A stretch of 64,000 nt of DNA from Candidatus Oxydemutatoraceae bacterium. GTDB taxonomy: Bacteria > Pseudomonadota > Gammaproteobacteria > Poriferisulfidales > Oxydemutatoraceae. The notes beneath the pieces are model-generated. The model did not search any database. It was not told the origin of the DNA and saw nothing but the letters and a program-made list of their open reading frames with translations. The position numbers were made by a program, and so were the translations under genes. The stretch lies in assembly GCA_965218975.1 (NCBI GenBank), contig OZ244717.1:594347-658346 (forward strand). The letters run 5' to 3'. Positions within the stretch are counted from its first letter, which is position 1, and each line of letters starts with the position of its first letter. This document shows positions 8,783 through 64,000 of the stretch, piece after piece.

Positions 8783-10861
8783 TCAGGCCCAGAGCCAATC
8801 CAGTTCCGAGAACGCGAGCTTGCGGTCAAAGTTCTCGATGTTGTCTCGGACATTCAGGATCAGGCAGCGGTCGCCGCCGCCATTCTTCGGTCCCCGCAAG
8901 CCCCTGCCGATCATTTGGAAGTAAAGGTTCGGGCTATACACCGGCCGTGCCACGATGATGGCGCGGGTCTTGGGCGCGTCGAATCCCTCCCGGAACACGG
9001 CGTAGTTCACGAGCGCTTTGATCTCGCCGCGACGGAACTCCTCGACCACGCGGCGGCGGGTCGCCGTTTCCGTCTCTGCACTCACGGCGCGCGACCGGAT
9101 GCCCCTCCGATTGAGGAGAGCCGCCACCGTCTGCGCATGCTCGACGGATGTCGCGAAGATGAGGGTGGGCCAATCCGGATCGACATGCTGTCCATAGGCT
9201 TCGATAATGCGCCTCGTCTGTTCGGCGCTCCGGGCGATCCGGTCCTCGACACTCGGCGGCAACCAAGGCAGCGACAGCCACTTTTCCAGTTCCCGCTCCC
9301 GATCATCGGAGTCGAGGGAGTTTTCCAAGATATCGTCGAGCGAGAATGTTTCGCCCTCGATGGTTTTGTGATCCGCTTGGGCCAGCACATCCTTAGCCTG
9401 TAGCTCCTGAATAACGTCTTGGGCGTTGTCGCTCTCGAATGCTCCGGCATCGAGCCGGTTGCCACCGTAACGATTGGCCAGCCACTTTGTTTCTTCCTCG
9501 TTGTATCCACGATAGGGAGTAGCGGTGAGGCCGAGCATGAATGGCTCGTCGGCCCTTTGGAAGCGCGTCAAGCCGATTTCGTCCATAACCGAAGTGAAGG
9601 TCGGGGCAATCGACCGATGCGCCTCGTCGAAGACGACCAGCTTGAAATTGGCCAGAAATTCGTATTCGCCGGGCTGCTTGGATAGCTTGGCATTGAGCGT
9701 CTGGATCGTCGCGACGACGACATGAAGGTCGCTTGTGGGGAGCGGTTTCGGTTGTCCGTCCCACATTCTGGAAACGCGAAGATGCGATTCATGAGGACCG
9801 ATACTCGACCAGACTTGGCGCCAAGCCTCCATAGCCTGCTCGCAAAGCTCGCTCCGGTCAGCGACCCATAGGATGCCACCTTTGAAGCCGCCATCGCGCA
9901 TCGCTTCGACGATCGCCTGAACGGCAACCCGCGTTTTACCCGATCCGGTCGGCATGCTGATCATCCCGCGTCGTTCGGCACCGCCCCCGTGCTCGTTATC
10001 CAGCATGTTTCGGACGTTATCGGCGATAGTCTTCTGGTAGTCATGGAGGAGCGAAAGGGAGCAGGGACCTTCGACTTCCAAGAAGGGATCACGTTTCTTC
10101 TTTCGCTCTCCGGCCCATTCAGTGGAGAACCCGAGCGAATGCACGAACTCGATGGCCCGAGGCGACCCGGCCCATTGCGACGGCGGATCGAGACGGTCCA
10201 GCGCTTGCTTGTATCGCTTGAGCGCATCGGTGTGATACATCGCGATGGCCGCTCCCGTGATCTTGACGCCCGTCAGCGTGATGCTGTCCTTCTCGAGCTT
10301 GAGCACGTCCAAAAGCGAAGCAGGAAGTTCTGTGTGTAGCTGTTGTTCTCCCACCGCAGCCAAGAGACGTTCGGCATCGGTCAAGTGCTGCCGTATTGCG
10401 GCGCGTTGTTCCTCGATCTCCTGCGGCGTCTTGCGCTGCACAATTGCCAAAATCTGCGTGGGACTCAGTTTAAGTTCCAATTCGCCTGCAACGACCTTCA
10501 GTTTACGTTGCTCGTCATCGTCAACAGTGCCTTCGAGATAGATGTCGGGGGAGAGAAAGACACACTCGCGTGATTCATCCATGACCAGGATTCGTTCGCA
10601 GGGGACGATACGGCATCGCTTCTGATGATCCTGAAGGTGTTCCTCCAATCCGGGCCAAACATCGGTCAGTGGGATTGGGTCTCCTTCGCTGAATAACTTC
10701 GGGGTTGGTTCGGTCAGATCGAACGCCGCCTTGATTTCTTCGGCTTTCGGATGGTTCAGTAGCACGTGCAGAGCTTCCGGGTTCGCCGGGTGAGGCCCAA
10801 GTGCGTCCTTCAGCGACACAATGCCAGTGGACGTTCGGATTCGTCCGTGCTCGTGGAGCAT
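8783..10861 (-). CDS. SF2 DEAH-box helicase (restriction-enzyme-Res-like) with a ~300-aa uncharacterised N-terminal domain
   Basis: Walker A MPTGSGKT, DEAH box VVFDEAHRS, LGLTATPYR and helicase-C QMIGRGLRG motifs. The ORF is open to 11023, but ATG at 10861 lies 16 nt after the upstream gene stop and avoids a 145-nt out-of-frame overlap. Confidence 0.7.
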   Translation of the reverse strand: MLHEHGRIRTSTGIVSLKDALGPHPANPEALHVLLNHPKAEEIKAAFDLTEPTPKLFSEGDPIPLTDVWPGLEEHLQDHQKRCRIVPCERILVMDESRECVFLSPDIYLEGTVDDDEQRKLKVVAGELELKLSPTQILAIVQRKTPQEIEEQRAAIRQHLTDAERLLAAVGEQQLHTELPASLLDVLKLEKDSITLTGVKITGAAIAMYHTDALKRYKQALDRLDPPSQWAGSPRAIEFVHSLGFSTEWAGERKKKRDPFLEVEGPCSLSLLHDYQKTIADNVRNMLDNEHGGGAERRGMISMPTGSGKTRVAVQAIVEAMRDGGFKGGILWVADRSELCEQAMEAWRQVWSSIGPHESHLRVSRMWDGQPKPLPTSDLHVVVATIQTLNAKLSKQPGEYEFLANFKLVVFDEAHRSIAPTFTSVMDEIGLTRFQRADEPFMLGLTATPYRGYNEEETKWLANRYGGNRLDAGAFESDNAQDVIQELQAKDVLAQADHKTIEGETFSLDDILENSLDSDDRERELEKWLSLPWLPPSVEDRIARSAEQTRRIIEAYGQHVDPDWPTLIFATSVEHAQTVAALLNRRGIRSRAVSAETETATRRRVVEEFRRGEIKALVNYAVFREGFDAPKTRAIIVARPVYSPNLYFQMIGRGLRGPKNGGGDRCLILNVRDNIENFDRKLAFSELDWLWA

Positions 10862-10877
10862 CCAGACTGCTGGCGAT

Positions 10878-11318
10878 TTACACTCTAACGGTAGGTAGGT
10901 ACAGGTCAGATCCCTTGTGCCGCATCGTCCATGGGCCGTACACGGCATTGTTTGACAATAGAGCATTCGTAAATTGTGCACGACCTTCATCGGAGAGATG
11001 ACGAAGAACTTCCAATGGTCCACAACCGACGCTCGTCTCGAAACCTAGAAGATAGGAATGTGGATTCTTTTCTAAAGAGCGACTAGCGAACCGCTTGCGC
11101 CAGTAGCCCAGGAACTCTTCAAACGACGGCTCCGCCGACAGATCGCAGTCGTCGTGTGGCACTTCCGTCGCATCAAGAGCGCGCAGCAACTTTTTGTCCG
11201 GTTCGTGGAAGTGCATATCCACAGTCGCATCATCGTCCCGACTTCCATCGCCCGGCACGATGTCGCCCGGCAGCAGCACGGAGTGCAAAGGCTGCCAAGT
11301 ACCCGCACGCATCCGCAC
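10878..11318 (-). CDS. Hypothetical 146-aa protein, middle gene of the island operon
   Basis: ORF packed between the ATPase gene (stop 11319) and the helicase gene with a GTG/ATG start immediately after the upstream stop; acidic N-terminus; no recognisable motif. Confidence 0.4.
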   Translation of the reverse strand: MRMRAGTWQPLHSVLLPGDIVPGDGSRDDDATVDMHFHEPDKKLLRALDATEVPHDDCDLSAEPSFEEFLGYWRKRFASRSLEKNPHSYLLGFETSVGCGPLEVLRHLSDEGRAQFTNALLSNNAVYGPWTMRHKGSDLYLPTVRV

Positions 11319-13247
11319 TCAGAGTTTCATGGGCCATAGTTCTCGCCCTTTCTGATCCTTTGGCCCCCGAACAATGGCATCAGCGTCTTCCACCGACAGC
11401 TTGCGCGAAGCGGTCCAGAACTCCTGATGAAGGTTCTCGCTTGCTTCTTGACCGGCGCCGCTTCCGAGGATGTGTTTTGCTACAACGTTGAACCTGTTCT
11501 CTGGCGACGGCAGCTTGAGGCCCAGCTTCTTCAACGCCGAAAGTGTGTCGGGGTCCGACGCCAGTTTCGGATGGACGCAAGACTTCGGGTCCGCGGGATC
11601 GTCTCCGTTCAGCGCATTGTCAGGCAGGAAGAGGCGTTCGGAATCGGGCGACCGCCAATCGCTGTTTGCTGTCAGGACGATATCGCCAAGTCCTTCGTCC
11701 GACCTTGCTTCGGACGGTATCGCTGCAGCCGTCTGTATCGCCGCCATGGACGCCCGAATCGCCTCGTCTCCTTCCTTGCCCTCCACGAGCGCCCGCAGCC
11801 ACACCGCGATCGGGGCCCTGGGCGCGGGCTCGCTATCGTGGGATCCATAATCTGACCGCTTCCGTTTCGGAGGAAACAACCGGTCAATGGTAGCAAGCCG
11901 ATTGCGTGTGAGTGCTTTATGATGAAGCCAATTGCGCGGACGGTCCGGGTATGCCGCCCAGCGCTCAAGCGGCTCTAGCTTTGAGGTTAACTCTTTCGGT
12001 GGGTACAAGAGGTTATTGTAAACACATAAGTTCCTACCTTGATCGGGGATAATTTCGCATTTGTGAAGATTAGTGAACAGGAGATCGCGAAGAAGATCGA
12101 CCTGTTTGGAATCGCCTCCCCCGTGTCGGCGCGGCAACGCATCCAAATGCTGGGCAGGGTCGTCATGAGTCGTGAGTTCCGGGAGCGCTTCGGCAATCAT
12201 CGCCGCCGCCGCTTTGATCAGCTCCTCATTGTACGCTCCCGGCAACAGATTCTGTCGATCCTCGTTGGTCTTCCATGGCGCATTAAGGATACCTGCGACG
12301 AGGCTCGCGGTGTCGGTCGGAAAGAATGCCCAGAATTGGCCCGGATCGGGCAACCTATTGAGCGGTACTGCCCACTGGATGCGCACCTTCTTGTCGCTGC
12401 CGTCCCCGGATCGCTGGTTGTCGTCGTCACGAGCATCACTCGACAGCGGGTGGGTGCACTCGAACAGTTTCCATTCATTGATCGTATCCTTGTTAGCTAG
12501 CGTATCCTTGTCAGCTAGGAGGTACTTGTCGTTGTCCCTCTCTAGCTCCAGCACGCGGTTCAACTTCTTTGAATTGTCGGTGAGCGTGATCTTCTTGACG
12601 TGTGCAACGAAAAGGAGAAACATCGGCGGGAAGCCCTGAATCTGCTGGGCAAGCTCCCCGTGCGCTCCCATCCTGAGGGGCAGGCGAACAATGTTCGTCG
12701 CCCAACTCATCAGTTCCCGCAATTCTTCATCCGTTTTCTTTGCGTCCTCGGGATCAACGGGCTCGGGTAGACGCAGCACCGGGTAGTGATCGGCCGGTGC
12801 GACCTTTGCTATGCGCTCCGCCGCGCGCCTCTTGTCGAAACGGAACGAACCTGAGCGGCTGTAGAACTCGGGCGCGTCGGTCACGCGCAAGACAGACTTG
12901 AAGCCGCGCCCGAATCTGCCGATCGCGGCGGTGTTCCGCTTGCTCGACATTCGGTCGAACATCAGCCCCTTAACACCGTCTTTATCTATGGGAGTTCCGT
13001 CATCGGCGCAGTAGAGGAATCCTTTCGTCAGGCAGATCAGGATGCGCTTCCCTTTCGGCGCATCAAGCAAGGCATCGGCACTGTTCTGGACGAGTTCGAA
13101 CAATTGGCGGTGGGCATATCCGCCCTGAGCTGTATCTTGTTCCAACCGGGCGTGTTCCGTTATCAGATTCGGTTGCTCGCGGTATACATTGAAGCTCTTT
13201 TTCGCTTCCTTGACGATGAACGCGCCCAACGGATCTTCAAGGACCAA
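11319..13247 (-). CDS. Sacsin/Hsp90-like GHKL (Bergerat-fold) ATPase with a ~400-aa unknown C-terminal region
   Basis: N-box ELVQNSADA, D.G.GM element (CADDGTPIDKDGVKGLM) and G-box IGRFGRGFKSVL align to Hsp90/sacsin/MORC motifs ELISNASDA and IGQFGVGFYS. The remainder does not resemble HtpG. Confidence 0.65.
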   Translation of the reverse strand: MVLEDPLGAFIVKEAKKSFNVYREQPNLITEHARLEQDTAQGGYAHRQLFELVQNSADALLDAPKGKRILICLTKGFLYCADDGTPIDKDGVKGLMFDRMSSKRNTAAIGRFGRGFKSVLRVTDAPEFYSRSGSFRFDKRRAAERIAKVAPADHYPVLRLPEPVDPEDAKKTDEELRELMSWATNIVRLPLRMGAHGELAQQIQGFPPMFLLFVAHVKKITLTDNSKKLNRVLELERDNDKYLLADKDTLANKDTINEWKLFECTHPLSSDARDDDNQRSGDGSDKKVRIQWAVPLNRLPDPGQFWAFFPTDTASLVAGILNAPWKTNEDRQNLLPGAYNEELIKAAAAMIAEALPELTTHDDPAQHLDALPRRHGGGDSKQVDLLRDLLFTNLHKCEIIPDQGRNLCVYNNLLYPPKELTSKLEPLERWAAYPDRPRNWLHHKALTRNRLATIDRLFPPKRKRSDYGSHDSEPAPRAPIAVWLRALVEGKEGDEAIRASMAAIQTAAAIPSEARSDEGLGDIVLTANSDWRSPDSERLFLPDNALNGDDPADPKSCVHPKLASDPDTLSALKKLGLKLPSPENRFNVVAKHILGSGAGQEASENLHQEFWTASRKLSVEDADAIVRGPKDQKGRELWPMKL

Positions 13248-32922: not shown

Positions 32923-33867
32923 ATGAAAAAAAGCAAATACAGTAACACGTTGAGCCTGTTTAATGCTATGAAAAAGTTTCCAACAAATGAGCAGGCTACC
33001 AAACATTTGGAAATAGTGCGTTGGGGAGGCAAGGCAAAGTGCCTATATTGTTTAACGCGCAATAAAATATCAGCGCGTAAAACCATAGGTCGCACGGCTG
33101 GACAATATCGTTGTAATTGTTGCCACAAAGAATTTACGGTGCGGACTGGCACTATCTTTGAAAAATCTCATTTACCATTGAATAAATGGATGTTTGCTAT
33201 TTACTTAGTACAAACTGCACGCAAGGGCATATCATCGTTACAATTAAGTAAAGAATTAGGCATTACTCAAAAGACAGCGTGGTTTATGCTTCACCGTATC
33301 CGCGAGGCGTGTAAAGGTGATTTGACCAAACTAACCGGCATTGTAGAGATAGACGAAACCTATATTGGCGGGAAAGAAAAAAACAAACATAAAAACAAGC
33401 GATTAAAGGCTGCCCGTGGAGCAGTTGGTAAAACTGCTATAGATGGTATGCGTGAACGCAAAGGCAAGGTTGAAGCAATGCTGATTGATAACACAGACCA
33501 ACATACACTACAAACGGCGATTCACCGCAATATCAATGTCGGTAGTCAGTTATACACCGATGATCATCGCGGTTATGCTGGATTGGATGGCGTGCTATAT
33601 CAGCATAAAAGTGTTAAGCATTCCGCTAACGAATATGTAAATGGTATGGCGCATACCAACGGCATAGAAAGTGTGTGGGCGGTGTTAAAGCGCGGCGTTA
33701 ATGGGACCTATCACAACATTACCACCAAACATTTACAGCGTTATGTTGGTGAATTTACGTTTCGGTTGAATGAGGGCAACGTTGAGCGACACACAAAACG
33801 ACGCATAGACAGTGTGCTTGCGGGGGCGATAGACAAACGATTAACATACAAAAGGCTAATATCATAA
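32923..33867 (+). CDS. IS1595-family (ISXO2-like) DDE transposase
   Basis: 314 aa; N-terminal zinc ribbon CLYCLTRNK...YRCNCCHKEF; DDE residues in IVEIDETYIGG, LYTDDHRGY and HTNGIESVWAVLKR. Confidence 0.8.
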   Translation: MKKSKYSNTLSLFNAMKKFPTNEQATKHLEIVRWGGKAKCLYCLTRNKISARKTIGRTAGQYRCNCCHKEFTVRTGTIFEKSHLPLNKWMFAIYLVQTARKGISSLQLSKELGITQKTAWFMLHRIREACKGDLTKLTGIVEIDETYIGGKEKNKHKNKRLKAARGAVGKTAIDGMRERKGKVEAMLIDNTDQHTLQTAIHRNINVGSQLYTDDHRGYAGLDGVLYQHKSVKHSANEYVNGMAHTNGIESVWAVLKRGVNGTYHNITTKHLQRYVGEFTFRLNEGNVERHTKRRIDSVLAGAIDKRLTYKRLIS

Positions 33868-39539: not shown

Positions 39540-40358
39540 TCAGCTTTGTGTCAAAGGCCACTGCGACGCGAATATTTTCTTGCGCGAGTCAACGACTTGA
39601 ACCGATAGCGCTTGAGTTTTATCGGTCGGCATATATGCGAAGTCAAAACTGGGATTTTCGCTGAACGAAATATCTCCCTTGACCGCAAAGATTACATCAC
39701 CGACCTCGTTCTTAACCTCAACGGTTTCTATATAGTGCGGAGGAATAAAGTAAGTTGTGATCTGATCCTTTTGCAGACCCGAATAATTCGGATGCATGAT
39801 TGAGAGGTGGAAACTGTAAGCGTTGCCAGGTGCAACAGGTTTCTCCTGCGTTAAGCTGGTTTTGCCCATCATCAGTTTGGCCATGGCATCATCACCCATA
39901 GGCGGCGCCGAACATCCGCCTGAAGCCTTAACAAAAACGGTGCTCATATACAGTTCGCCTTTGTTGGTTTGCGCGATAGCGCGCACGGTGCTGTACTCGT
40001 TGACTCGAATGCGCGTGCCGATGCTTGCCGACGTTTGCGGCGATAAGCTAAAATGGGCTGCTATAGGCGAAGGGTTTTTATCGACAACTAGATAGTGGTC
40101 GGTAATAAACTCTGTGCCGTTTTGCGGGTAAGAGGAAAGAATCTTGACGGTGACGTCACCGCCGTTGGCCGGACGGGCGGGCACATCCAAACTAATCACT
40201 CCGGCGCCGTCTCGGACCGGCCGGTCCTTAAACAGGTAATGCCGGATGTCTTTCCAGGCGCGCTCATCTTTTTGTTCTACGGACCAGACCGTTCCGATCG
40301 CCAGTGTTGTGCCTGCCGCCACAGTTGAGATTAGAAATTTACGTCGAGCTAATTCCAT
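39540..40358 (-). CDS. Tat-secreted fused SoxY-SoxZ-like sulfur carrier protein
   Basis: Twin-arginine signal RRKFLISTVAAG; mid-protein Cys motif KASGGCSAPP where stand-alone SoxY ends in GGCGG; followed by a SoxZ-sized domain. Confidence 0.5.
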   Translation of the reverse strand: MELARRKFLISTVAAGTTLAIGTVWSVEQKDERAWKDIRHYLFKDRPVRDGAGVISLDVPARPANGGDVTVKILSSYPQNGTEFITDHYLVVDKNPSPIAAHFSLSPQTSASIGTRIRVNEYSTVRAIAQTNKGELYMSTVFVKASGGCSAPPMGDDAMAKLMMGKTSLTQEKPVAPGNAYSFHLSIMHPNYSGLQKDQITTYFIPPHYIETVEVKNEVGDVIFAVKGDISFSENPSFDFAYMPTDKTQALSVQVVDSRKKIFASQWPLTQS

Positions 40359-40440: not shown

Positions 40441-40500
40441 TAAGAGGGTGTAAGCGGACACGCGAAATGAGGGAAAGGGACACAACTTGAGGGGAAATTA
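40441..40500 (+). repeat. Putative prophage terminus with tandem ~20-bp transposase-binding-like repeats (cluster C1)
   Basis: TGTAAGCGGACACGCGAAATGAGGGAAAGGGACACAACTTGAGGGGAAATTAG; the TGAGGGAAAGGG.CACAA and CTTGAGGG.AAA half-sites recur at 42250-42285. Confidence 0.45.
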
Positions 40501-40544
40501 GTCCGGATGCAGGATTACCAGGGCTCTGATCGTTCAATTTACAA

Positions 40545-40677: not shown

Positions 40678-41334
40678 CTAGGCAATACTTCCATTCAAAT
40701 CATACAGTTCACACATTTGCGCTAAAAATTGCGTTTGTCCACCATAACTAGGATGACGTACTTGAATAACTTTGTCTCGTTTATCTCGAGCGCATAAGCG
40801 GAGCGCTGTTTGCATTGCATCATTGCCTATTGCAATCAACCGACCCGGCTTCAACAGCCGAATAAGTTGGGAGAGAAATTCCTCACCGGATCGTTGCTCG
40901 AAAGAATTATGAGGGCGGTTACTGAAAGGGCTGTGAGGCTCGTGAGGGTGTAGTGGAAAAACATTCCAAAGAAAGACAGATGCGTCAACTCGTGAAAGAA
41001 CCTGCCAGATGACAGCCGCAGTTCGCTCAATAACCACTTTCCCCCTCGTTGGCCGATTTATAGATAAACCCCACCGCTGAGCGTGAGCATGAATATGAAC
41101 ATCATCTGTTAAGGCAAGCCCTGTTCTCCTGCCGCCACGATAGCCCAGATCGCGTCCAATCCAGAGAGAATCAATTTCCTGTTCTGTTGCTACCTCAAGC
41201 ATGGATTGCAACATCTGTGCTCTACTACGCGGTGCGTCATCCAAGTCGTGAACAGCACAACGGTTTGAATAAGGATTAAACGTATTTTCAAAATTCAACC
41301 CACACAATTCTCCCACATATTGGGCCGGCCTCAT
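40678..41334 (-). CDS. Divergent uracil-DNA-glycosylase-superfamily protein (family-4-like; catalytic motif A altered)
   Basis: 218 aa; WIGRDLGYRGGRRTGLALTDD aligns to motif A GE(A/G)PG...G.PF.G.AG with Glu and Pro replaced; C-terminal HPS motif (VRHPSYGG). Confidence 0.55.
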   Translation of the reverse strand: MRPAQYVGELCGLNFENTFNPYSNRCAVHDLDDAPRSRAQMLQSMLEVATEQEIDSLWIGRDLGYRGGRRTGLALTDDVHIHAHAQRWGLSINRPTRGKVVIERTAAVIWQVLSRVDASVFLWNVFPLHPHEPHSPFSNRPHNSFEQRSGEEFLSQLIRLLKPGRLIAIGNDAMQTALRLCARDKRDKVIQVRHPSYGGQTQFLAQMCELYDLNGSIA

Positions 41335-41351
41335 GTCTTACCCTTTCTCAT

Positions 41352-42107
41352 CTATTGACTTGTACTTAATAGTACGGGTTCCTCTCTGTTTGTTTTTGGC
41401 CCTGCCGGAATTTCATCGTATGTGCGATTATTAAGTATTCGACCATTTCGGTGCTTTTGAACGCCACCCCATTGTTTGAAAAAGAACGATGCGCCAAACG
41501 TTCTGCACTGATCCTTGATTGACAGAACCCAATCTTCTTTCATTGGTCTTGCGCCGGGCCCGGACTCTCCGCCGACAATAACCCAGTGAATACCTCTTAA
41601 CGGCAGATCATCGACAGGACCAATCAGTGGTTCACAAGAGAGAAAACGTGTATGAGAAGGAACTTCCCGCAAATCATGGATACGCTGATAAACCCGATCG
41701 TCTTCTACACTAACACCCATCCAGATATTTGGTGTCCACTTGAGCTTGTTCGCCAGGGATTTCAGGCGCCCGCTGCGTTTGGTGAGAATCTGGAAAATGT
41801 GTTGGGAACAATCGTTCATCGTTTTGAATGCTTGCTCGATAAATCCGGTTGGTACGTTTTGGTGGAAAATATCGCTCATGGAGTTGACGAATATCATGCG
41901 GGGTGAGCGCCATTTGCGGGGCGCATCCAATAAATCTTCGTGCAACGTTAGTTTGAAACCGTTTCGGTAGCGCTTATTTCCCATCAATTTGAGGCGACGG
42001 GACATACGTTCCGCATAGCAGTGCTTGCAGCCGGCACTGACCTTCGTGCAGCCCGTGACGGGGTTCCAAGTCATTTCAGTCCATTCAATTTTGGAGCGGG
42101 ATGTCAT
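41352..42107 (-). CDS. Phage Gp37/Gp68-family (DUF5131) protein with N-terminal CxxxxxxCxxC cluster
   Basis: 251 aa; the N-terminus TWNPVTGCTKVSAGCKHCYAERM is characteristic of the Gp37Gp68 family; 17 nt upstream of the UDG-like gene (co-operonic). Confidence 0.6.
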   Translation of the reverse strand: MTSRSKIEWTEMTWNPVTGCTKVSAGCKHCYAERMSRRLKLMGNKRYRNGFKLTLHEDLLDAPRKWRSPRMIFVNSMSDIFHQNVPTGFIEQAFKTMNDCSQHIFQILTKRSGRLKSLANKLKWTPNIWMGVSVEDDRVYQRIHDLREVPSHTRFLSCEPLIGPVDDLPLRGIHWVIVGGESGPGARPMKEDWVLSIKDQCRTFGASFFFKQWGGVQKHRNGRILNNRTYDEIPAGPKTNREEPVLLSTSQ

Positions 42108-42249
42108 CTTAATTATCTACTCGCGTTTAGAATATAGCCGGCACACTTCTTTGCCAAAGCGATTGCGTTTGGTGAATCATTTCCAACACAGAATATGAAC
42201 TCATAGAGCGGCGACTTTCTCGAGTTTACCAATGTCTTTGATTTTTCCA

Positions 42250-42285
42250 TTAATCTTGAGGGAAAGGGGCACAACTTGAGGGAAA
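42250..42285 (+). repeat. Internal copy of the terminus-like repeat cluster (C2), lacking the TGTAAGCGG terminal portion
   Basis: CTTGAGGGAAAGGGGCACAACTTGAGGGAAAAATTA versus C1 at 40466-40500. Confidence 0.6.
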
Positions 42286-42304
42286 AATTAAAGCCGATTA
42301 CCCA

Positions 42305-43006
42305 TTACAACGCAATGCCTGTCTCATATACGTGCACCTCTAGCGCAGTGCGACGTCCAGGTACCTGCTGTGTTCCTAGGAGTGTTTCGGTCGCGAGAGT
42401 GATGAGTTCGCCGCCCAGGAAAGAATAATTATGTACTATTCGGTAAGAAAATGAATCTTGCCCTACACTCGGGAGCACCTCCCATTGTGTCGTCCCCCTG
42501 TTATGGGTCTGCAAACGGTATAGGAACCATTGATGCAGCCTGTTTACGTCATTGACTTCTGGGCGGCTGTCCGGCTCAAATTCGGCGAAAGCGCCAAAGA
42601 ATAAAGACAATTTCCCCCTTTGGCCGGCAAGTGATCTTGGAACTTCGAGCACAAAATATTCGGTGTATTCCGTAGTGCCCGCGGATGACCTAGCACCATT
42701 AGGGGCGGGGGCTATTGTGGTACTGAACCCATAGCGCGGATTGGAAAACTGTAATTCTCCATCCCAAATCATACTGGGGAGATCGGGGTCATACTCGCCT
42801 ACTGAAATCTCTGATGCAGTGTGGATAGCGGCGAGAGCCAAATAGGTTGTTTTGGCGGCATCGGAACTGACGATGTTTTCTAGCGCGTTGACTCGCCGCG
42901 TAAGCTCCTCCACCCGCTCATCTTGAGTGAACACCGACACTGACCGCGCGATACTCAAGCTGATAGGCTTCTGAGGTGTAATTTTAAGCGAGATAGATTG
43001 CGTCAT
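42305..43006 (-). CDS. Phage tail-fibre-region protein (233 aa)
   Basis: Last structural ORF distal to the J-like gene; no motif assigned. Confidence 0.45.
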   Translation of the reverse strand: MTQSISLKITPQKPISLSIARSVSVFTQDERVEELTRRVNALENIVSSDAAKTTYLALAAIHTASEISVGEYDPDLPSMIWDGELQFSNPRYGFSTTIAPAPNGARSSAGTTEYTEYFVLEVPRSLAGQRGKLSLFFGAFAEFEPDSRPEVNDVNRLHQWFLYRLQTHNRGTTQWEVLPSVGQDSFSYRIVHNYSFLGGELITLATETLLGTQQVPGRRTALEVHVYETGIAL

Positions 43007-52619: not shown

Positions 52620-53031
52620 TCGTTGAAAATACCAACGGTAATAAAAAGTAACCGTCGATTAACACCGGCGCTTCCACGCCGGTCAAAATCAGACGGCTGA
52701 ATCCGTCGTCGAGACCACAGTGATGCAACGCAGCGATCACTGCCGCGGCCAGCGGTCCGGCATCGTCGCGTGCCGCGGAACCTCCGCGCACGTCACTGAC
52801 GTTGCGTACCGCCACAACGGCGACGAAGCGCAGGCGGACGATCGCCGCCGTCGAATTGTCCGGCGTGCGTGCAGAGCCGCCGGCAAACAGCACGTAAATT
52901 GTATTTCCTTGCGGCTTGTGTTTGTCCGTCAACGTGCGCAAATCGCCCGCACGTTTAATCGCCACGTGATGGATGTGTGACTCAAGTTGTTGCACTATCA
53001 TTCGCTCCGGCGCCAAAAGGTCAGTTAACAT
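52606..53031 (-). CDS. Phage head-tail joining region protein (start at ATG 53029-53031, MLTDLLAPER...)
   Basis: The track ORF 52606..53127 begins with GTG inside the duplicated small-peptide gene in another frame; ATG at 53031 overlaps the small-peptide stop (TAATG). Confidence 0.45.
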   Translation of the reverse strand: MLTDLLAPERMIVQQLESHIHHVAIKRAGDLRTLTDKHKPQGNTIYVLFAGGSARTPDNSTAAIVRLRFVAVVAVRNVSDVRGGSAARDDAGPLAAAVIAALHHCGLDDGFSRLILTGVEAPVLIDGYFLLPLVFSTNATF

Positions 53032-53252
53032 TATTGTACGTTGATTGTCTTGACTACCCACACCAAAAAGCCGATAACCAGTGCGGCGGCTAATACGCCT
53101 CCCAATATCCATTCCATTTTCCATCACCTCCTATAAGGTCAGTTAACATTATTGTACGTTGATTGTCTTGACTACCCACACCAAAAAGCCGATAACCAGT
53201 GCGGCGGCTAATACGCCTCCCAATATCCATTCCATTTTCCATCACCTCCTAT
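53017..53252. repeat. Perfect 118-bp tandem duplication (2 copies: 53017-53134, 53135-53252)
   Basis: Unit AAGGTCAGTTAACATTATTGTACGTTGATTGTCTTGACTACCCACACCAAAAAGCCGATAACCAGTGCGGCGGCTAATACGCCTCCCAATATCCATTCCATTTTCCATCACCTCCTAT. Confidence 0.9.
53031..53117 (-). CDS. 28-aa single-TM peptide MEWILGGVLAAALVIGFLVWVVKTINVQ with strong RBS (AGGAGGTGATGGAAA-ATG); second identical copy at 53149-53235
   Basis: Located inside a 118-bp perfect tandem duplication. Confidence 0.35.
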   Translation of the reverse strand: MEWILGGVLAAALVIGFLVWVVKTINVQ

Positions 53253-55369: not shown

Positions 55370-56557
55370 TTAATGTTGTTGAACCGCTTGCGCGGCGGTC
55401 AAATAATCCGTTTTATCCGCACCGCCGTGTTGCTCCTGAAAAGACACGGCCGCCGCGTGCATTGATGCGCGCGTCGGGTCAATGCTGTACCCGTCCGGCG
55501 CGACAAATCCGGCCGTTGCCGCCGACTGTTTCTCCGGTGTCGCGACCTCACCGAAATGCACTTGGACCGGTAAACTGCCGAGGAGCGCTTTGACCGCGTC
55601 TTTTGCATTCTTGGTCACCGTGTTGCCGTCTTCGGAATACACGATCGTATCGGTTGTCTTAATGCGCTCCAGCAAATTGATTACCGTCTCTTTGTGTGCC
55701 GGTAAAACTTTGCCGGCCTTAATCAACCCTTCAACACACTCTTCCGACGAAGCGCGCGCGGCTTTTGTCTCACGTTCCTCAAGCGCTTGTTCGCGCCGCT
55801 TCAATTCTTCTTCGCGCTCACTCATATCTTTGCTCTCTATGTTTGTGGCCGGTTTTTCTGTCGTGACACGGAACGCTTTTGCAAGTTCCTCAAGCGCTTG
55901 TTCGCGCCGCTTCAATTCTTCTTCGCGCTCACTCATATCTTTGCTCTCTATGTTTGTGGCCGGTTTTTCTGTCGTGACACGGAACGCTTTTGCAAGTTCC
56001 TCAAGCGCTTTGGATACGCCCTGATTGGTTGTTAATTCATTCTCGGCAAAGTGGTCTGTTTTGCCGGTAACTTTTCGGACTGCATCGATTATTGCGTGCC
56101 CAATTCGTTCTGCAAGGTTCATGGTTTTGTCTCCTTCGGTTAATAATTCGGCAGATAGATATTCGTCCGGGCTGTCATCGAATACGACCGGTTGCATGCC
56201 TTTGACTGCCGGCACCTCGGCGCCGAGGAAGCCGACATGCCGAAGCGCATACGATGCCGGCGACGGGTTCGCTTTCGCGCCGGGCTTGTAAAAACTAGCT
56301 GAGATTTTTTTGTACCGCCCGGCATGAACTTCATCGGCAAATTTGCCGTCTATCTGTCGGGGGATGGCGAACAAGGAATTACCCTTACGGTACACATCCG
56401 CGATCCAGCCATACGCCGGCGCGTTGTCTTGCGGATGGCCCTTTGTAATCGGCGCCTCGTGTTTTCGTGCGTCGTAGTTTTGCGCGATCGCATCCAGCTG
56501 CGCGATGCCGATCTCCGATGCGTGCCGGCCTGCGCGGAATATCTCTATCGGTTTCAT
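55370..56557 (-). CDS. Mu gpI-like prohead protease with C-terminal scaffold (Z-like) region containing an in-frame duplication
   Basis: 395 aa; the N-terminal half resembles Mu-like prophage I protein; the C-terminal coiled-coil scaffold region carries the 37-aa repeat. Confidence 0.6.
   Translation of the reverse strand: MKPIEIFRAGRHASEIGIAQLDAIAQNYDARKHEAPITKGHPQDNAPAYGWIADVYRKGNSLFAIPRQIDGKFADEVHAGRYKKISASFYKPGAKANPSPASYALRHVGFLGAEVPAVKGMQPVVFDDSPDEYLSAELLTEGDKTMNLAERIGHAIIDAVRKVTGKTDHFAENELTTNQGVSKALEELAKAFRVTTEKPATNIESKDMSEREEELKRREQALEELAKAFRVTTEKPATNIESKDMSEREEELKRREQALEERETKAARASSEECVEGLIKAGKVLPAHKETVINLLERIKTTDTIVYSEDGNTVTKNAKDAVKALLGSLPVQVHFGEVATPEKQSAATAGFVAPDGYSIDPTRASMHAAAVSFQEQHGGADKTDYLTAAQAVQQH
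55780..56010. repeat. 111-bp in-frame tandem duplication (2 copies plus a partial third) inside the scaffold region
   Basis: Protein repeat EELAKAFRVTTEKPATNIESKDMSEREEELKRREQAL occurs twice; DNA copies start at 55780 and 55891. Confidence 0.85.
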
Positions 56558-57492: not shown

Positions 57493-58848
57493 TCACCCAC
57501 CTGCTTTCTTATAGAGTAGAGCCCCACGCCGATGACGATCAAAGTATCGGGCAGAGCTCGGAAACGTTGTCCAAAGTAAAGTGCCGTCGGTGTTCTCGCG
57601 CACGATTGCTAAAAAGTTTTTCCCTTTGTCCGACCGAAACATTTTAAAGTAGCGTTTACGGAAATATCCGTTCTGATATTCGCTTAGCCAGATTTCATCG
57701 GGTGTTCGCAATGTTAGTGATATAAACTTGCTAAACTGCTCTCTTCTAACACTACGATCTTCAATAATATGGCTGAGTAAATCCTCGTGTATTTCTACCA
57801 CCTCAATCGGCGTGGTAACCACACGATGATCTTGCTCACCGAGCAACTCGCGTTTGAGCGTTCTGCGCGCATCTGCGACCGACTTATCTTTAGGCAGCAT
57901 CGCCGGTGCCGGCGGCAAGTCTGTGCGTTCGGCAAGGTCTCTAGCAGACGGTAAACCGTAATCCTTAAATGTCTTTTGATCGGGCTTCAGCAACGCAACC
58001 TTCCTGCCGCCGGCGCTGCCGATCGCATCCGGCAGCTGTCCTTCGAGGTCGTAGATCGGTCTCGCCCGGCCCGGGTTGTAACCGAAGCCCGCATCCGGCG
58101 CAAACATCACTTGCCTGCCGGTTGCATCTTTGCCGACATAGCGTACCGCCGGCTCGGTGATGACTTCACCGGTCGTCTTATCAACCGCAGCTTGTTGCTC
58201 AAACTTTTTCAGTTTCCCTTTGCTGCTCTCAACTTTCAGGCCGCGCCTGTTTAATGCGTTGTCGCTCAACGTGCGCACCCGGCAACGACAGTTCCAGCCG
58301 TTCGGCGGGTAGATCGTATCCCAGATCGGATCGTCGTGGCGAAATACCTTGCCGTGCAACGCGCGGTGGTGGTCGCGCGTGCGCCCGTCCAGCACCGCGA
58401 CATACTGCCAGTAGGGCCGTGCGCCGATTGCAAGCTTTGCTTGCCGCGCCTGTTCGCGGTAACGCCCGGCGTTATATGCCGATGCCAGATTCTGCCGAAA
58501 GATCGTTTTCAAACGGTGGTGCGAACCTAACTGCACGAGTTGCGCCGTGCCGTCCGGGCCTTCTTTGACGTGCTTACCCCACCAGCCTAACTTGCGCAGA
58601 CGCGGTTCAAGTTCATCGGCAAATTGTTTGAGTGTGATGCCTTCGGTGATTGCACGGTCCGCCGATTGGCGGATCGTGCGCAGCACTTCAAGTTTGGTCG
58701 CCTTCGCGACAGTGAAAGCCTGCGCGTGTGATTGCTGCCACACATCATGCCAATCCCAGCTGATCGCATAGCCTTTGCTCCTGAAATACGCAATCGCTTG
58801 CGCCGGCGGCTGCCGGACCGCAAACCCGAGGTCAACCGCCTCGGGCAT
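57493..58848 (-). CDS. Mu gpF-like head morphogenesis protein (minor head protein)
   Basis: 451 aa directly downstream of, and overlapping, the portal gene as in Mu gp29-gp30. Confidence 0.6.
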   Translation of the reverse strand: MPEAVDLGFAVRQPPAQAIAYFRSKGYAISWDWHDVWQQSHAQAFTVAKATKLEVLRTIRQSADRAITEGITLKQFADELEPRLRKLGWWGKHVKEGPDGTAQLVQLGSHHRLKTIFRQNLASAYNAGRYREQARQAKLAIGARPYWQYVAVLDGRTRDHHRALHGKVFRHDDPIWDTIYPPNGWNCRCRVRTLSDNALNRRGLKVESSKGKLKKFEQQAAVDKTTGEVITEPAVRYVGKDATGRQVMFAPDAGFGYNPGRARPIYDLEGQLPDAIGSAGGRKVALLKPDQKTFKDYGLPSARDLAERTDLPPAPAMLPKDKSVADARRTLKRELLGEQDHRVVTTPIEVVEIHEDLLSHIIEDRSVRREQFSKFISLTLRTPDEIWLSEYQNGYFRKRYFKMFRSDKGKNFLAIVRENTDGTLLWTTFPSSARYFDRHRRGALLYKKAGG

Positions 58849-63252: not shown

Positions 63253-63687
63253 TTAAGATTGATACAATTCCGCTTCTGCCGCCCGACGCTTTACCAACCC
63301 AGACAGTCGTTTGCCGCCGGCATTCACCCAACGGCCGAACTCGGCAGTCGCTTCATCATGCTTGCCTGCTAATACCCTCTGCCTCAGTGTTGAACGCCGC
63401 AAGGCTCCGCGCCCGAGATTGAACGTGAAACTGACCAGCGCATCAAATTGCCCGTCGGTCAACTCACCCGGAATCAGATCGCAGACGGCGCGCTCCGCAT
63501 CTGCGACGTCGCGACGCAGGATTTCCTCCGCTTCATCCTCGCTGATGCTACTGCCGAAATCTTCGCCGCCCAAAACCACATGTCCGTAGCCGATTGTCGG
63601 TTTGCCGGCGGGACATATATATATGGTGTCGGAATAACCCTCGAACCGTTTGATTAAGTCTAATCCTTGTTGGGTGATATGGCGCAT
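63253..63687 (-). CDS. Phage lysozyme (GH24 endolysin)
   Basis: 144 aa; LIKRFEGY...GYGH core and a typical C-terminal region ...AEFGRWVNAGGKRLSGLVKRR. Confidence 0.8.
   Translation of the reverse strand: MRHITQQGLDLIKRFEGYSDTIYICPAGKPTIGYGHVVLGGEDFGSSISEDEAEEILRRDVADAERAVCDLIPGELTDGQFDALVSFTFNLGRGALRRSTLRQRVLAGKHDEATAEFGRWVNAGGKRLSGLVKRRAAEAELYQS
63271..63435. repeat. ~165-bp direct repeat (copy 1) of lysozyme 3-prime coding sequence; copy 2 at 63836-64000, 565 bp away, one mismatch
   Basis: CGCTTCTGCCGCCCGACGCTTTACC(A/G)ACCCAGACAGTCG... identical to the window end. Confidence 0.85.
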
Positions 63688-63715: not shown

Positions 63716-64000
63716 TTATTCAGTAAAAATATTTTTCTGTTGGGTGGTGTCTAAAATATGCCGGATGGTCACGCCGGACAAGCCGAACTCGTCAATGAGT
63801 TCGGCGATTGATTTACCGTTGCGGTACGCCCGCCGCACCGCTTCTGCCGCCCGACGCTTTACCGACCCAGACAGTCGTTTGCCGCCGGCATTCACCCAAC
63901 GGCCGAACTCGGCAGTCGCTTCATCATGCTTGCCTGCTAATACCCTCTGCCTCAGTGTTGAACGCCGCAAGGCTCCGCGCCCGAGATTGAACGTGAAACT
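63716..64000 (-). CDS. Partial ORF (open to the window end): lysozyme-C-terminal-like segment fused to an HTH-like tail
   Basis: Encodes ...SFTFNLGRGALRRSTLRQRVLAGKHDEATAEFGRWVNAGGKRLSGSVKRRAAEA then VRRAYRNGKSIAELIDEFGLSGVTIRHILD (classic HTH); shares a >=165-bp duplicate with lysozyme. Confidence 0.35.
   Translation of the reverse strand, partial: SFTFNLGRGALRRSTLRQRVLAGKHDEATAEFGRWVNAGGKRLSGSVKRRAAEAVRRAYRNGKSIAELIDEFGLSGVTIRHILDTTQQKNIFTE
63719..63742 (-). promoter_or_regulatory. Second copy of the late-gene upstream element, ~33 nt upstream of the lysozyme start
   Basis: Minus-strand AACAGAAAAATATTTTTACTGAA; surrounding CATGCGGGTAATTTATCCGC resembles the protease-upstream cassette. Confidence 0.35.

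Follow-up and report, generated by a model that had tools for sequence, protein, structure and literature searches.

What does a pair of neighbouring genes at the edge of a Mu-like prophage represent: cargo that the phage carries and uses, or genes that lie outside it? The pair is found in the 64-kb stretch of DNA that we analysed as a whole (the window), and a first-pass annotation had proposed that it is terminal cargo of the prophage, in the slot where Mu holds the DNA-modification gene mom, and a candidate DNA-modification or anti-restriction module. If true, this would define a new phage DNA-modification module. The gene calls and positions were borne out by the open reading frames and by Pfam. 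Both genes lie on the minus strand: a divergent UDG-superfamily gene of 218 aa at 40678-41334 (UDG-like) and an intact DUF5131 (Gp37-Gp68) gene of 251 aa at 41352-42107, the latter identified with Pfam and PADLOC. The 17-nt gap between them, also as annotated, occupies 41335-41351 and reads ATGAGAAAGGGTAAGAC on the minus strand, taken directly from the sequence. It contains a ribosome-binding-like site, AAGGG, which together with the short spacing allows the two genes to be co-transcribed; in scans of their surroundings for Rfam families, tRNAs, promoters and terminators nothing exceeded chance. The explanation that we consider probable is that this locus is no two-gene module but the junction at which a B3-like transposable prophage adjoins a small group of defence-type genes. 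The prophage would have transposed into tcmP, leaving DUF5131 as an intact, orphaned ORF that lies, with the UDG-like gene, outside the present prophage. This is an ordinary picture, in which defence-type genes gather at a transposable prophage and are interrupted by it.

The Mu-like character of the prophage, already recognized in the first-pass annotation, was confirmed by Mu-type head genes. Between 42.3 and 64 kb we found Portal_Mu (E 3e-101), Phage_Mu_F and Mu Gp27, plus a lambda-type tape measure and gpJ, a combination of Mu-type head and lambda-type tail that is shared with phage B3. The closest known relatives are the B3-like transposable siphoviruses, and the portals of B3 and its relatives show ~50% identity. 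The late-gene part of this siphovirus prophage extends over 42257-64000 on the minus strand and runs past the end of the window; the right end is the one terminus visible, the left part, with the left end and the transposase genes, lying past position 64000. The last prophage ORF, in the tail-fibre region (42305-43006, minus strand, 233 aa), is an orphan with no homologues in IMG/VR and only itself as a match in a 5.8-billion-protein database. At 15-48 nt past its stop codon lies the inner of two repeat copies (42257-42290, plus strand), which starts with TG and which we interpret as the right terminus of the present B3-like prophage; this terminus begins TGAGGGAAAGGG... The right end of phage B3 is similarly built: its terminus, 87 nt past the last small ORF, has TG and short sub-repeats, and the terminus in the window likewise has TG and short direct sub-repeats close behind the last tail gene.

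On its other side the inner repeat abuts a relic of tcmP, consisting of the last 47 codons of the gene (42116-42256, minus strand, with the stop codon at 42113-42115) and truncated on its 5' side by the repeat. An exhaustive phmmer search of 1.84 billion proteins with the 47-aa relic peptide returned 28 proteins at E <= 1e-3 (best 1.7e-10, 64% identity), and the match was nearly always at or near the C-terminus of the target. All seven matches tested, including five of nearly full length (259-300 aa), were TcmP. The relic resembles the C-terminus of short-type TcmP (PDC-M41A type), against which it scored 40.8 and 28.5 bits by BLAST, above the 26.2-bit maximum of 200 shuffles. BLAST and phmmer alone detected it; neither the NCBIfam profile nor an HMM made from TcmP sequences of viruses picked it up. 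The TcmP homology starts at codon RLME, at nt 42256, which is the base before the inner repeat (42257). Since the tcmP homology ends exactly at a repeat that starts with TG, the end of the prophage is placed at 42257 and both genes outside it. From this one junction, at the right end only, we infer that the prophage probably inserted into tcmP and that neither the UDG-like nor the DUF5131 gene is part of the present prophage; on this reading the two genes lose their proposed status as terminal cargo. A GC step at the junction was considered and dropped, the finer profile being a gradient with no clean step at 42257.

The first-pass annotation had reported that two repeat copies resembling transposase-binding ends bracket the gene pair. 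Both copies are present, but the second coordinate had been given ~7 nt too low, and the resemblance to such ends held: each copy starts with TG and is made of two 20-nt units, both beginning TGAGGG. The outer copy (40468-40501, plus strand, two 20-nt TGAGGGrAA units) is solitary, lies 1789 nt further out than its inner counterpart and is separated by 109 nt from the start of the host gene SoxYZ. With the consensus TGAGGGAAAGGGrCACAACTTGAGGGrAAA (40468-40497 and 42257-42286), the two copies are in direct orientation and 93% identical. The outer repeat would be a second right-end copy, and its simplest interpretation is the terminus of a related, older element which may have carried tcmP-DUF5131-UDG-like beside it. 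As a tentative addition to the junction of prophage and defence-type genes, a second Mu-like element may have ended at the outer repeat, carrying the 1.79-kb segment as its right-terminal cargo, and later received the present prophage as an insertion. It would be an older prophage or else a small, non-autonomous derivative. The units, the orientation and the TG start that the outer repeat shares with the inner one speak for such an element, as does the occurrence of TcmP-DUF5131 pairs in prophages, where they are common, often close to contig ends and with repressor and integrase genes alongside. The additional DUF5131 and UDG-like genes of the same genome, described below, also suggest mobility. 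However, no second phage body is visible in the window, there is no inverted copy of the end repeat within its 64 kb, and the likeness between the two copies stops after ~34 nt. Furthermore, Mu-type target immunity would disfavour insertion close to a related end. On balance a second element is possible but less likely than not.

The UDG-like protein matches the Pfam UDG profile PF03167 with 32.5 bits (cut-off 24.3, E 1.1e-7) over residues 108-198 only, a score above the gathering threshold that places it in the UDG superfamily; the Pfam scan gave it no other match. We aligned the family with 22 homologues of 67-92% identity. The motifs GRDLGY (residues 60-65) and HPS (194-196), which the first-pass annotation had pointed out correctly, are both invariant in this alignment, and WIGRDLGYRGGRRTG, FLWNVFPLHPH and RHPSYGG are invariant across the family. 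Asp62, Asn124 and His194 are invariant too, and were assigned to catalytic positions by motif comparison and not by structure. Asp62 occupies position 3 of a G-x-x-x-G motif, which we take to be the catalytic position of UDG families 1 to 3 (Asp or Asn), and the Asn of the FLWN strand motif and the HPS of motif B presumably correspond to the UDG family motifs. Judged by its motifs, the protein has the catalytic-residue pattern of a competent UDG-fold glycosylase, with a polar residue in motif A, the Asn and the His of motif B. GRDLGY had been taken for a rewritten motif A that suggested altered chemistry, such as binding or flipping a base. With Asp62, Asn124 and His194 all invariant, that suggestion is not supported, and the protein more probably excises bases in the ordinary way than simply binds them. 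The protein would be an active monofunctional glycosylase, flipping out and excising a uracil-like or modified pyrimidine.

Compared with UDG families 1-4 (UNG, MUG, SMUG1 and the family 4 Fe-S UDG), the UDG-like protein shares the G-x-x-x-G motif A (GRDLG) with a polar residue at position 3, but it differs from them in several respects. Its scores are below the family-4 cut-offs (12.9 vs 125.3 for TIGR00758 and 15.5 vs 250 for NF040953), and it carries a conserved extra N-terminal extension of ~55 residues, with FNPY and Cys26. Since Cys26 is the only invariant cysteine in the family alignment, no 4Fe-4S cluster is expected. Sequence searches gave no match to any solved UDG. The AlphaFold model is poor (pLDDT 53) and its fold matches, headed by SMUG1, are not significant.

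We surveyed the genomic company of the UDG-like and DUF5131 genes with tblastn and profile HMM searches. The UDG-like gene is a member of a distinct family, strongly conserved and usually found as the last gene of an Nmad2-MazG-MazG_C operon or alone in defence islands. MazG_C lies upstream of it in 42 of the 81 genome loci, 74 of the 80 metagenome loci and both viral loci; for Nmad2, the literature searched yielded no functional study. In the defence islands its neighbours include restriction, TIR, Fic, toxin-antitoxin and PsyrTA genes, among them type I restriction HsdM/HsdS-like, HigA-like and PIN-like ones, labels assigned by eye from the sequences. The closest relative outside the source genome (82% identity) is solitary. 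Relatives are 58-78% identical across unrelated phyla, which points to horizontal spread of the gene. The family thus represents a very strongly conserved, uncharacterised branch of the UDG superfamily, tied to the Nmad2-MazG-MazG_C operon across many phyla. The source genome itself holds a second UDG-like gene (90% identity) and a second DUF5131 gene (99% identity), which suggests mobility. If these second copies are adjacent, the two genes travel together at least locally.

It is unlikely that the UDG-like protein is an ordinary housekeeping uracil-DNA glycosylase of host repair that merely adjoins the prophage. The Pfam UDG match over the cut-off, the conserved residues at the catalytic positions and some database records that call its relatives 'uracil-DNA glycosylase' would agree with a repair enzyme. 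A housekeeping role sits badly, however, with scores so far below the curated family-4 cut-offs, with the lack of a sequence match among solved UDGs, with the horizontal spread indicated by the identity across unrelated phyla, with the setting of the gene inside defence islands or the Nmad2-MazG operon, and with the presence of two copies in one genome.

Defence glycosylases of the UDG superfamily are an already established kind, represented by Brig1 and Brig2 (PMC11078745; bioRxiv 10.1101/2025.10.29.685425). Like them, the UDG-like protein is a single-gene, horizontally spread protein of the superfamily, found in defence islands and beside mobile elements. Unlike them, its family ends an Nmad2-MazG-MazG_C operon in at least half of the loci surveyed, and we liken the two by superfamily and context only; the portions of PMC11078745 and bioRxiv 10.1101/2025.10.29.685425 available describe no operon of this type for Brig1 or Brig2. 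From its genomic context we infer a possible Brig-like antiviral role, in which the solitary UDG-like protein would act as Brig1 and Brig2 do, producing abasic sites in modified phage DNA.

The DUF5131 protein matches Pfam PF07505 with 327.7 bits (E 5.9e-98) over profile positions 2-243 of 243, and PADLOC PDC-M41B with E 3.4e-119. These profile matches show that it corresponds to component B of TcmP-DUF5131, a candidate defence system of two genes (PADLOC PDC-M41). In 56 of 80 viral loci a protein with a median length of 372 aa directly adjoins DUF5131, usually upstream and on the same strand. This neighbour scores above the curated cut-off of TIGR04474 (TcmP, three-Cys-motif partner protein) and also matches PDC-M41A or PDC-M30A, which confirms TcmP as the regular partner of DUF5131 and the pair as the PADLOC candidate systems PDC-M41 and PDC-M30. 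Of the DUF5131 relatives that were examined, the closest (77-78%) belong to TcmP-DUF5131 pairs located among DarTG, GmrSD, restriction and reverse-transcriptase genes. The locus in the window keeps the canonical gene order and the near-abutting spacing of the PDC-M41/PDC-M30 pair (TIGR04474 plus PF07505), but it differs from a PDC-M41 pair in that tcmP is reduced to 47 codons and the system is incomplete: no intact TcmP lies beside DUF5131, and the window has no TcmP match beyond the relic. In the literature searched for DUF5131 and TcmP we found no experimental function for the pair.

TcmP faintly resembles RsmD-like methyltransferases, below threshold, and the DUF5131 protein, which may be radical-SAM-related, matches rSAM_mob_pairA weakly (76 bits vs a cut-off of 355). 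The model of the DUF5131 protein (pLDDT 75) gave weak TIM-barrel matches, the best being spore photoproduct lyase (TM-score 0.49, E 0.02). The cysteine cluster noted at first pass is indeed N-terminal, although its spacing is C20-x6-C27-x2-C30 and not C-x7-C-x2-C, to be compared with C-x3-C-x2-C in the radical SAM motif. DUF5131 is listed as a radical SAM subgroup at RadicalSAM.org (PMC9477430), and a Pfam scan of the protein found DUF5131 and a sub-threshold GP88 only. One might imagine the 1.79-kb segment as terminal cargo of a second Mu-like element, possibly a small non-autonomous one moved by the phage transposase, with tcmP-DUF5131-UDG-like working in this lineage as a three-gene unit: DNA would be marked or damaged by TcmP (methyltransferase-like) and DUF5131 (radical-SAM-like), and the resulting product would be processed by the glycosylase. 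The second genomic copies would be another such unit. We regard this as an improbable scheme.

A functional DNA-modification or anti-restriction module made of the UDG-like and DUF5131 genes and carried, like mom, as terminal cargo of the present prophage is very unlikely. The two genes do share a strand with 17 nt between them, are flanked by the last tail-region gene and an end-like repeat, and each have a second copy in the same genome. However, DUF5131 was present in none of the 161 UDG-like loci (81 genome and 80 metagenome), and the reverse search found the UDG-like gene in none of 84 DUF5131 loci, including 0 of 80 viral ones. Among the closest relatives of either gene the two were adjacent in 0 of 5 loci. 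The first-pass annotation had itself made the module depend on co-conservation, and the pair is not co-conserved. DUF5131 has a conserved partner of its own in TcmP, and members of the UDG-like family are very rare on viral contigs, with 2 loci among the 2.9 million contigs of IMG/VR vs 508 matches for DUF5131. The comparison with the com-mom cassette of Mu fails as well: the Pfam scan found no Mom domain and no Mom or Com homologue in either protein, and the genes would lie beyond the phage end at the cut tcmP relic and not inside it, with a second end copy 1789 nt out. For experiments, the Nmad2-MazG-MazG_C-UDG operon is a better target than the UDG-like/DUF5131 pair.

It is scarcely credible that the repeats are chance similarities, operators or repetitive elements of the host and that an unrelated deletion truncated tcmP. 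Such a reading would agree with the presence of only two copies and with a 10-nt sub-motif that, taken by itself, shows no enrichment in the window (8 matches vs 6.7 expected), but the 25-nt core has 2 matches in the window vs 0 in 100 shuffles, both copies show their TG exactly where their mutual similarity begins, the inner one meets the end of the tcmP homology to the base and 15 nt past the last phage ORF, phage B3 shares the end layout, and the repeat is absent from IMG/VR and from 171 other loci. The junction, resolved at base level, supplies the sequence at the right end of an uncultured B3-like phage, including its two 20-nt TGAGGGrAA sites.

Both genes lie on the minus strand, the UDG-like ORF at 40678-41334 (218 aa) and the DUF5131 (Gp37/Gp68) ORF at 41352-42107 (251 aa), separated by 17 nt, as the first-pass annotation had placed them, and the family identities that it gave them also stand. 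The UDG-like ORF matches Pfam UDG at 32.5 bits (curated cut-off 24.3, E 1.1e-7), a match limited to residues 108-198; it scores far below the cut-offs of curated family-4 UDG models, and a comparison with solved structures gave no sequence match. The DUF5131 protein matches its Pfam family over its full length (327.7 bits), and its N-terminal cysteine cluster, formerly read as C-x7-C-x2-C, is spaced C20-x6-C27-x2-C30. Both genes are a fresh instance of already known kinds. With these small corrections the original observation holds, but its interpretation, a DNA-modification or anti-restriction module carried as terminal cargo of a Mu-like prophage, is only partly supported.

We surveyed co-occurrence in both directions by tblastn and profile HMMs, using fetched flanks of 5-10 kb. 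DUF5131 was found in none of 81 UDG-like loci from species-representative genomes and in none of 80 from metagenomes, while the UDG-like gene was found in none of 80 DUF5131 loci from viral contigs. Close relatives gave the same result. Three close relatives of DUF5131 (77-78% identity), surveyed at four loci, had no UDG-like gene nearby, and the UDG-like relative most similar outside the source genome (82% identity, one locus) had no DUF5131 nearby and is solitary in metabolic-gene surroundings. Zero adjacency in every surveyed set, in both directions, is an outcome that the first-pass annotation had itself named as refuting, and the proposal of a co-conserved two-gene module does not stand. 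The source contig (2.08 Mb) encodes a second DUF5131 (P0121, 99% identical, with a different, shorter C-terminal tail) and a second UDG-like protein (P0002, 90% identical), the latter with Y65H in motif A and a one-residue insertion.

The end-like repeats reported beside these genes are real. The sequence TGAGGGAAAGGGrCACAACTTGAGGGrAAA occurs as a direct repeat, 93% identical, at 40468 (outer copy) and 42257 (inner copy); 100 shuffles produced no match to its 25-nt core, and each copy consists of two 20-nt units. A short reading frame, situated between the inner repeat and the DUF5131 gene, ends 5 nt ahead of the DUF5131 start codon. The peptide of its final 47 codons (42116-42256) matched 28 proteins at E <= 1e-3 in a search of 1.84 billion (best match E 1.7e-10, 64% identity), and in nearly every case the aligned stretch lay at the C-terminal end of the matched protein or close to it. 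All seven matches tested, including five nearly full-length ones (259-300 aa), are TcmP (three-Cys-motif partner protein) above the curated cut-off, and the sole match checked in PADLOC (P0264) is of the PDC-M41A type. BLAST of this tcmP relic against viral TcmP gave scores of 40.8 and 28.5 bits, both above the best of 200 shuffles (26.2 bits). In the alignment, TcmP homology begins at codon RLME (nt 42256), and the repeat-encoded residues did not align with TcmP, so that, judged from sequence, tcmP breaks off exactly at the first base of the inner repeat, a TG-initiated sequence that resembles a phage end.

The last phage ORF has its stop codon 15 nt beyond the end of this phage-end-like sequence. 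Phage B3 resembles this prophage end in its TG start, its short sub-repeats and its position near the last ORF, the B3 end lying 87 nt past the last small ORF. Most simply, the present prophage would be inserted in tcmP with its right limit at 42257, which would leave DUF5131 and the UDG-like gene outside it rather than as its terminal cargo, with DUF5131 orphaned from its partner in a two-gene system. This base-precise phage-host junction is one of the two most interesting by-products of the analysis. The outer repeat agrees with the inner one in orientation, in its two units and in starting with TG; similarity begins exactly at that TG and is lost after ~34 nt, and no inverted copy was found anywhere in the 64-kb window. 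We take the outer repeat as a putative solitary second right end, most likely belonging to an older related element, itself putative, that would have carried tcmP-DUF5131-UDG-like beside its terminus and served as the target for insertion of the present prophage. A GC-content argument for the junction fails at fine scale. The host gene adjoining the outer repeat encodes a fused SoxY-SoxZ sulfur-oxidation carrier (39540-40358, minus strand), its start codon only 109 nt from the repeat.

The Mu-like identity of the phage is borne out: its late region, from 42.3 kb to the window end, encodes a Mu-type portal, Mu F and Mu gp27 together with a lambda-type tape measure and gpJ, and its nearest known relatives are B3-like transposable siphoviruses. 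The last ORF (42305-43006, minus strand, 233 aa) is an orphan, matching only itself among 5.8 billion proteins and having no relatives in IMG/VR. The Mu F-like head protein (57493-58848, minus strand) has a PBECR2 nuclease-like domain (Pfam E 9.8e-20) at its C-terminus. The prophage also holds three perfect or near-perfect duplications, two in tandem (2 x 118 nt at 53017-53252; about 2.2 x 111 nt at 55771-56010) and one of 163 nt with copies 568 nt apart (63270-63432 and 63838-64000), reaching the window end; these could be artefacts of assembly, or true duplications that keep the reading frame of head genes.

One protein family directly adjoins DUF5131 in 56 of 80 viral loci (median 372 aa), mostly upstream and on the same strand. 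This family is TcmP (TIGR04474, above the curated cut-off); its short form corresponds in PADLOC to PDC-M41A, its long form, which has a wHTH domain, to PDC-M30A. The DUF5131 of the window matches PADLOC PDC-M41B at E 3.4e-119, and its closest relatives examined are TcmP-DUF5131 pairs, neighboured by DarT-Macro, GmrSD, Eco57I-type restriction and reverse-transcriptase genes. Because TcmP is missing, the DUF5131 of the window is probably inactive as a system. DUF5131 is listed as a radical-SAM subgroup at RadicalSAM.org (PMC9477430); its predicted structure (pLDDT 75) has a TIM-barrel-like fold with weak fold matches, the best by TM-score, likewise weak, being spore photoproduct lyase (0.49, E 0.02). 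TcmP resembles RsmD-like methyltransferases faintly and below threshold, and the pair may act on nucleic acid.

The UDG-like family (6102 matches) is 57-78% identical across Gammaproteobacteria, Latescibacterota, Acidobacteriota, Chloroflexi, Nitrospira and Spirochaetia and near-absent from viral contigs (2 loci, versus 508 DUF5131 matches). Its usual position is last in an Nmad2 - MazG-like - MazG_C - UDG operon. MazG_C lies upstream in 42/81 genome loci, 74/80 metagenome loci (54/55 of those that have 700 nt or more of upstream sequence) and 2/2 viral loci. The four-gene operon occurs in at least six phyla (for example at the surveyed loci L048:4239-6633, L001:6822-10648, L162 and L163), often directly downstream of TIR-domain genes; PADLOC gave zero matches for its Nmad2, MazG and MazG_C proteins, and our literature search found no functional study of it. 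This widespread, uncharacterised operon is the other most interesting by-product. Other UDG-like copies, including the nearest relatives of that in the window, are solitary beside defence-type genes (TIR, Fic, PsyrT/PsyrA and, labelled by eye, type I restriction HsdM/HsdS, HigA and PIN). The PsyrT/PsyrA toxin-antitoxin pair (PADLOC E 1e-275 and 1e-131) lies immediately 3' of the UDG-like gene at L001:10663-14051, and also in L002, L013 and L019.

Three residues are invariant in the family, D62 (GRDLG), N124 (FLWN) and H194 (HPS). In UNG (GQDPY) the catalytic Asp occupies position 3 of the G-x-x-x-G motif A, as does the catalytic Asn in MUG and SMUG1 (GINPG, GMNPG), and we take the Asn and His of the UDG-like protein to be the base-recognition and leaving-group residues. 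Their invariance at these positions argues for ordinary base excision, probably of a uracil-like or modified pyrimidine, and against the altered, binding-only chemistry suggested earlier. Only one Cys is invariant, so an Fe-S cluster is not expected from the sequence. Defence against phages with modified bases by UDG-superfamily enzymes is established for Brig1 (PMC11078745) and Brig2 (bioRxiv 10.1101/2025.10.29.685425). By analogy with this precedent, and given the defence-island context, we favour the UDG-like protein as a candidate antiviral glycosylase. We speculate that in the canonical operon the MazG-type pyrophosphohydrolase might clear the dNTP pool of the same unusual nucleotide.

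Elsewhere in the window, a high-GC stretch (0.56-0.60) at 8783-13247 (minus strand) holds a ResIII/SNF2-type helicase gene, adjoined by the gene of a protein (642 aa) that weakly matches a Sacsin domain, and may be another defence-type islet. An IS1595-family transposase (32923-33867, plus strand) lies within a low-GC patch at 33-35 kb (0.39-0.42 versus ~0.48 around it).
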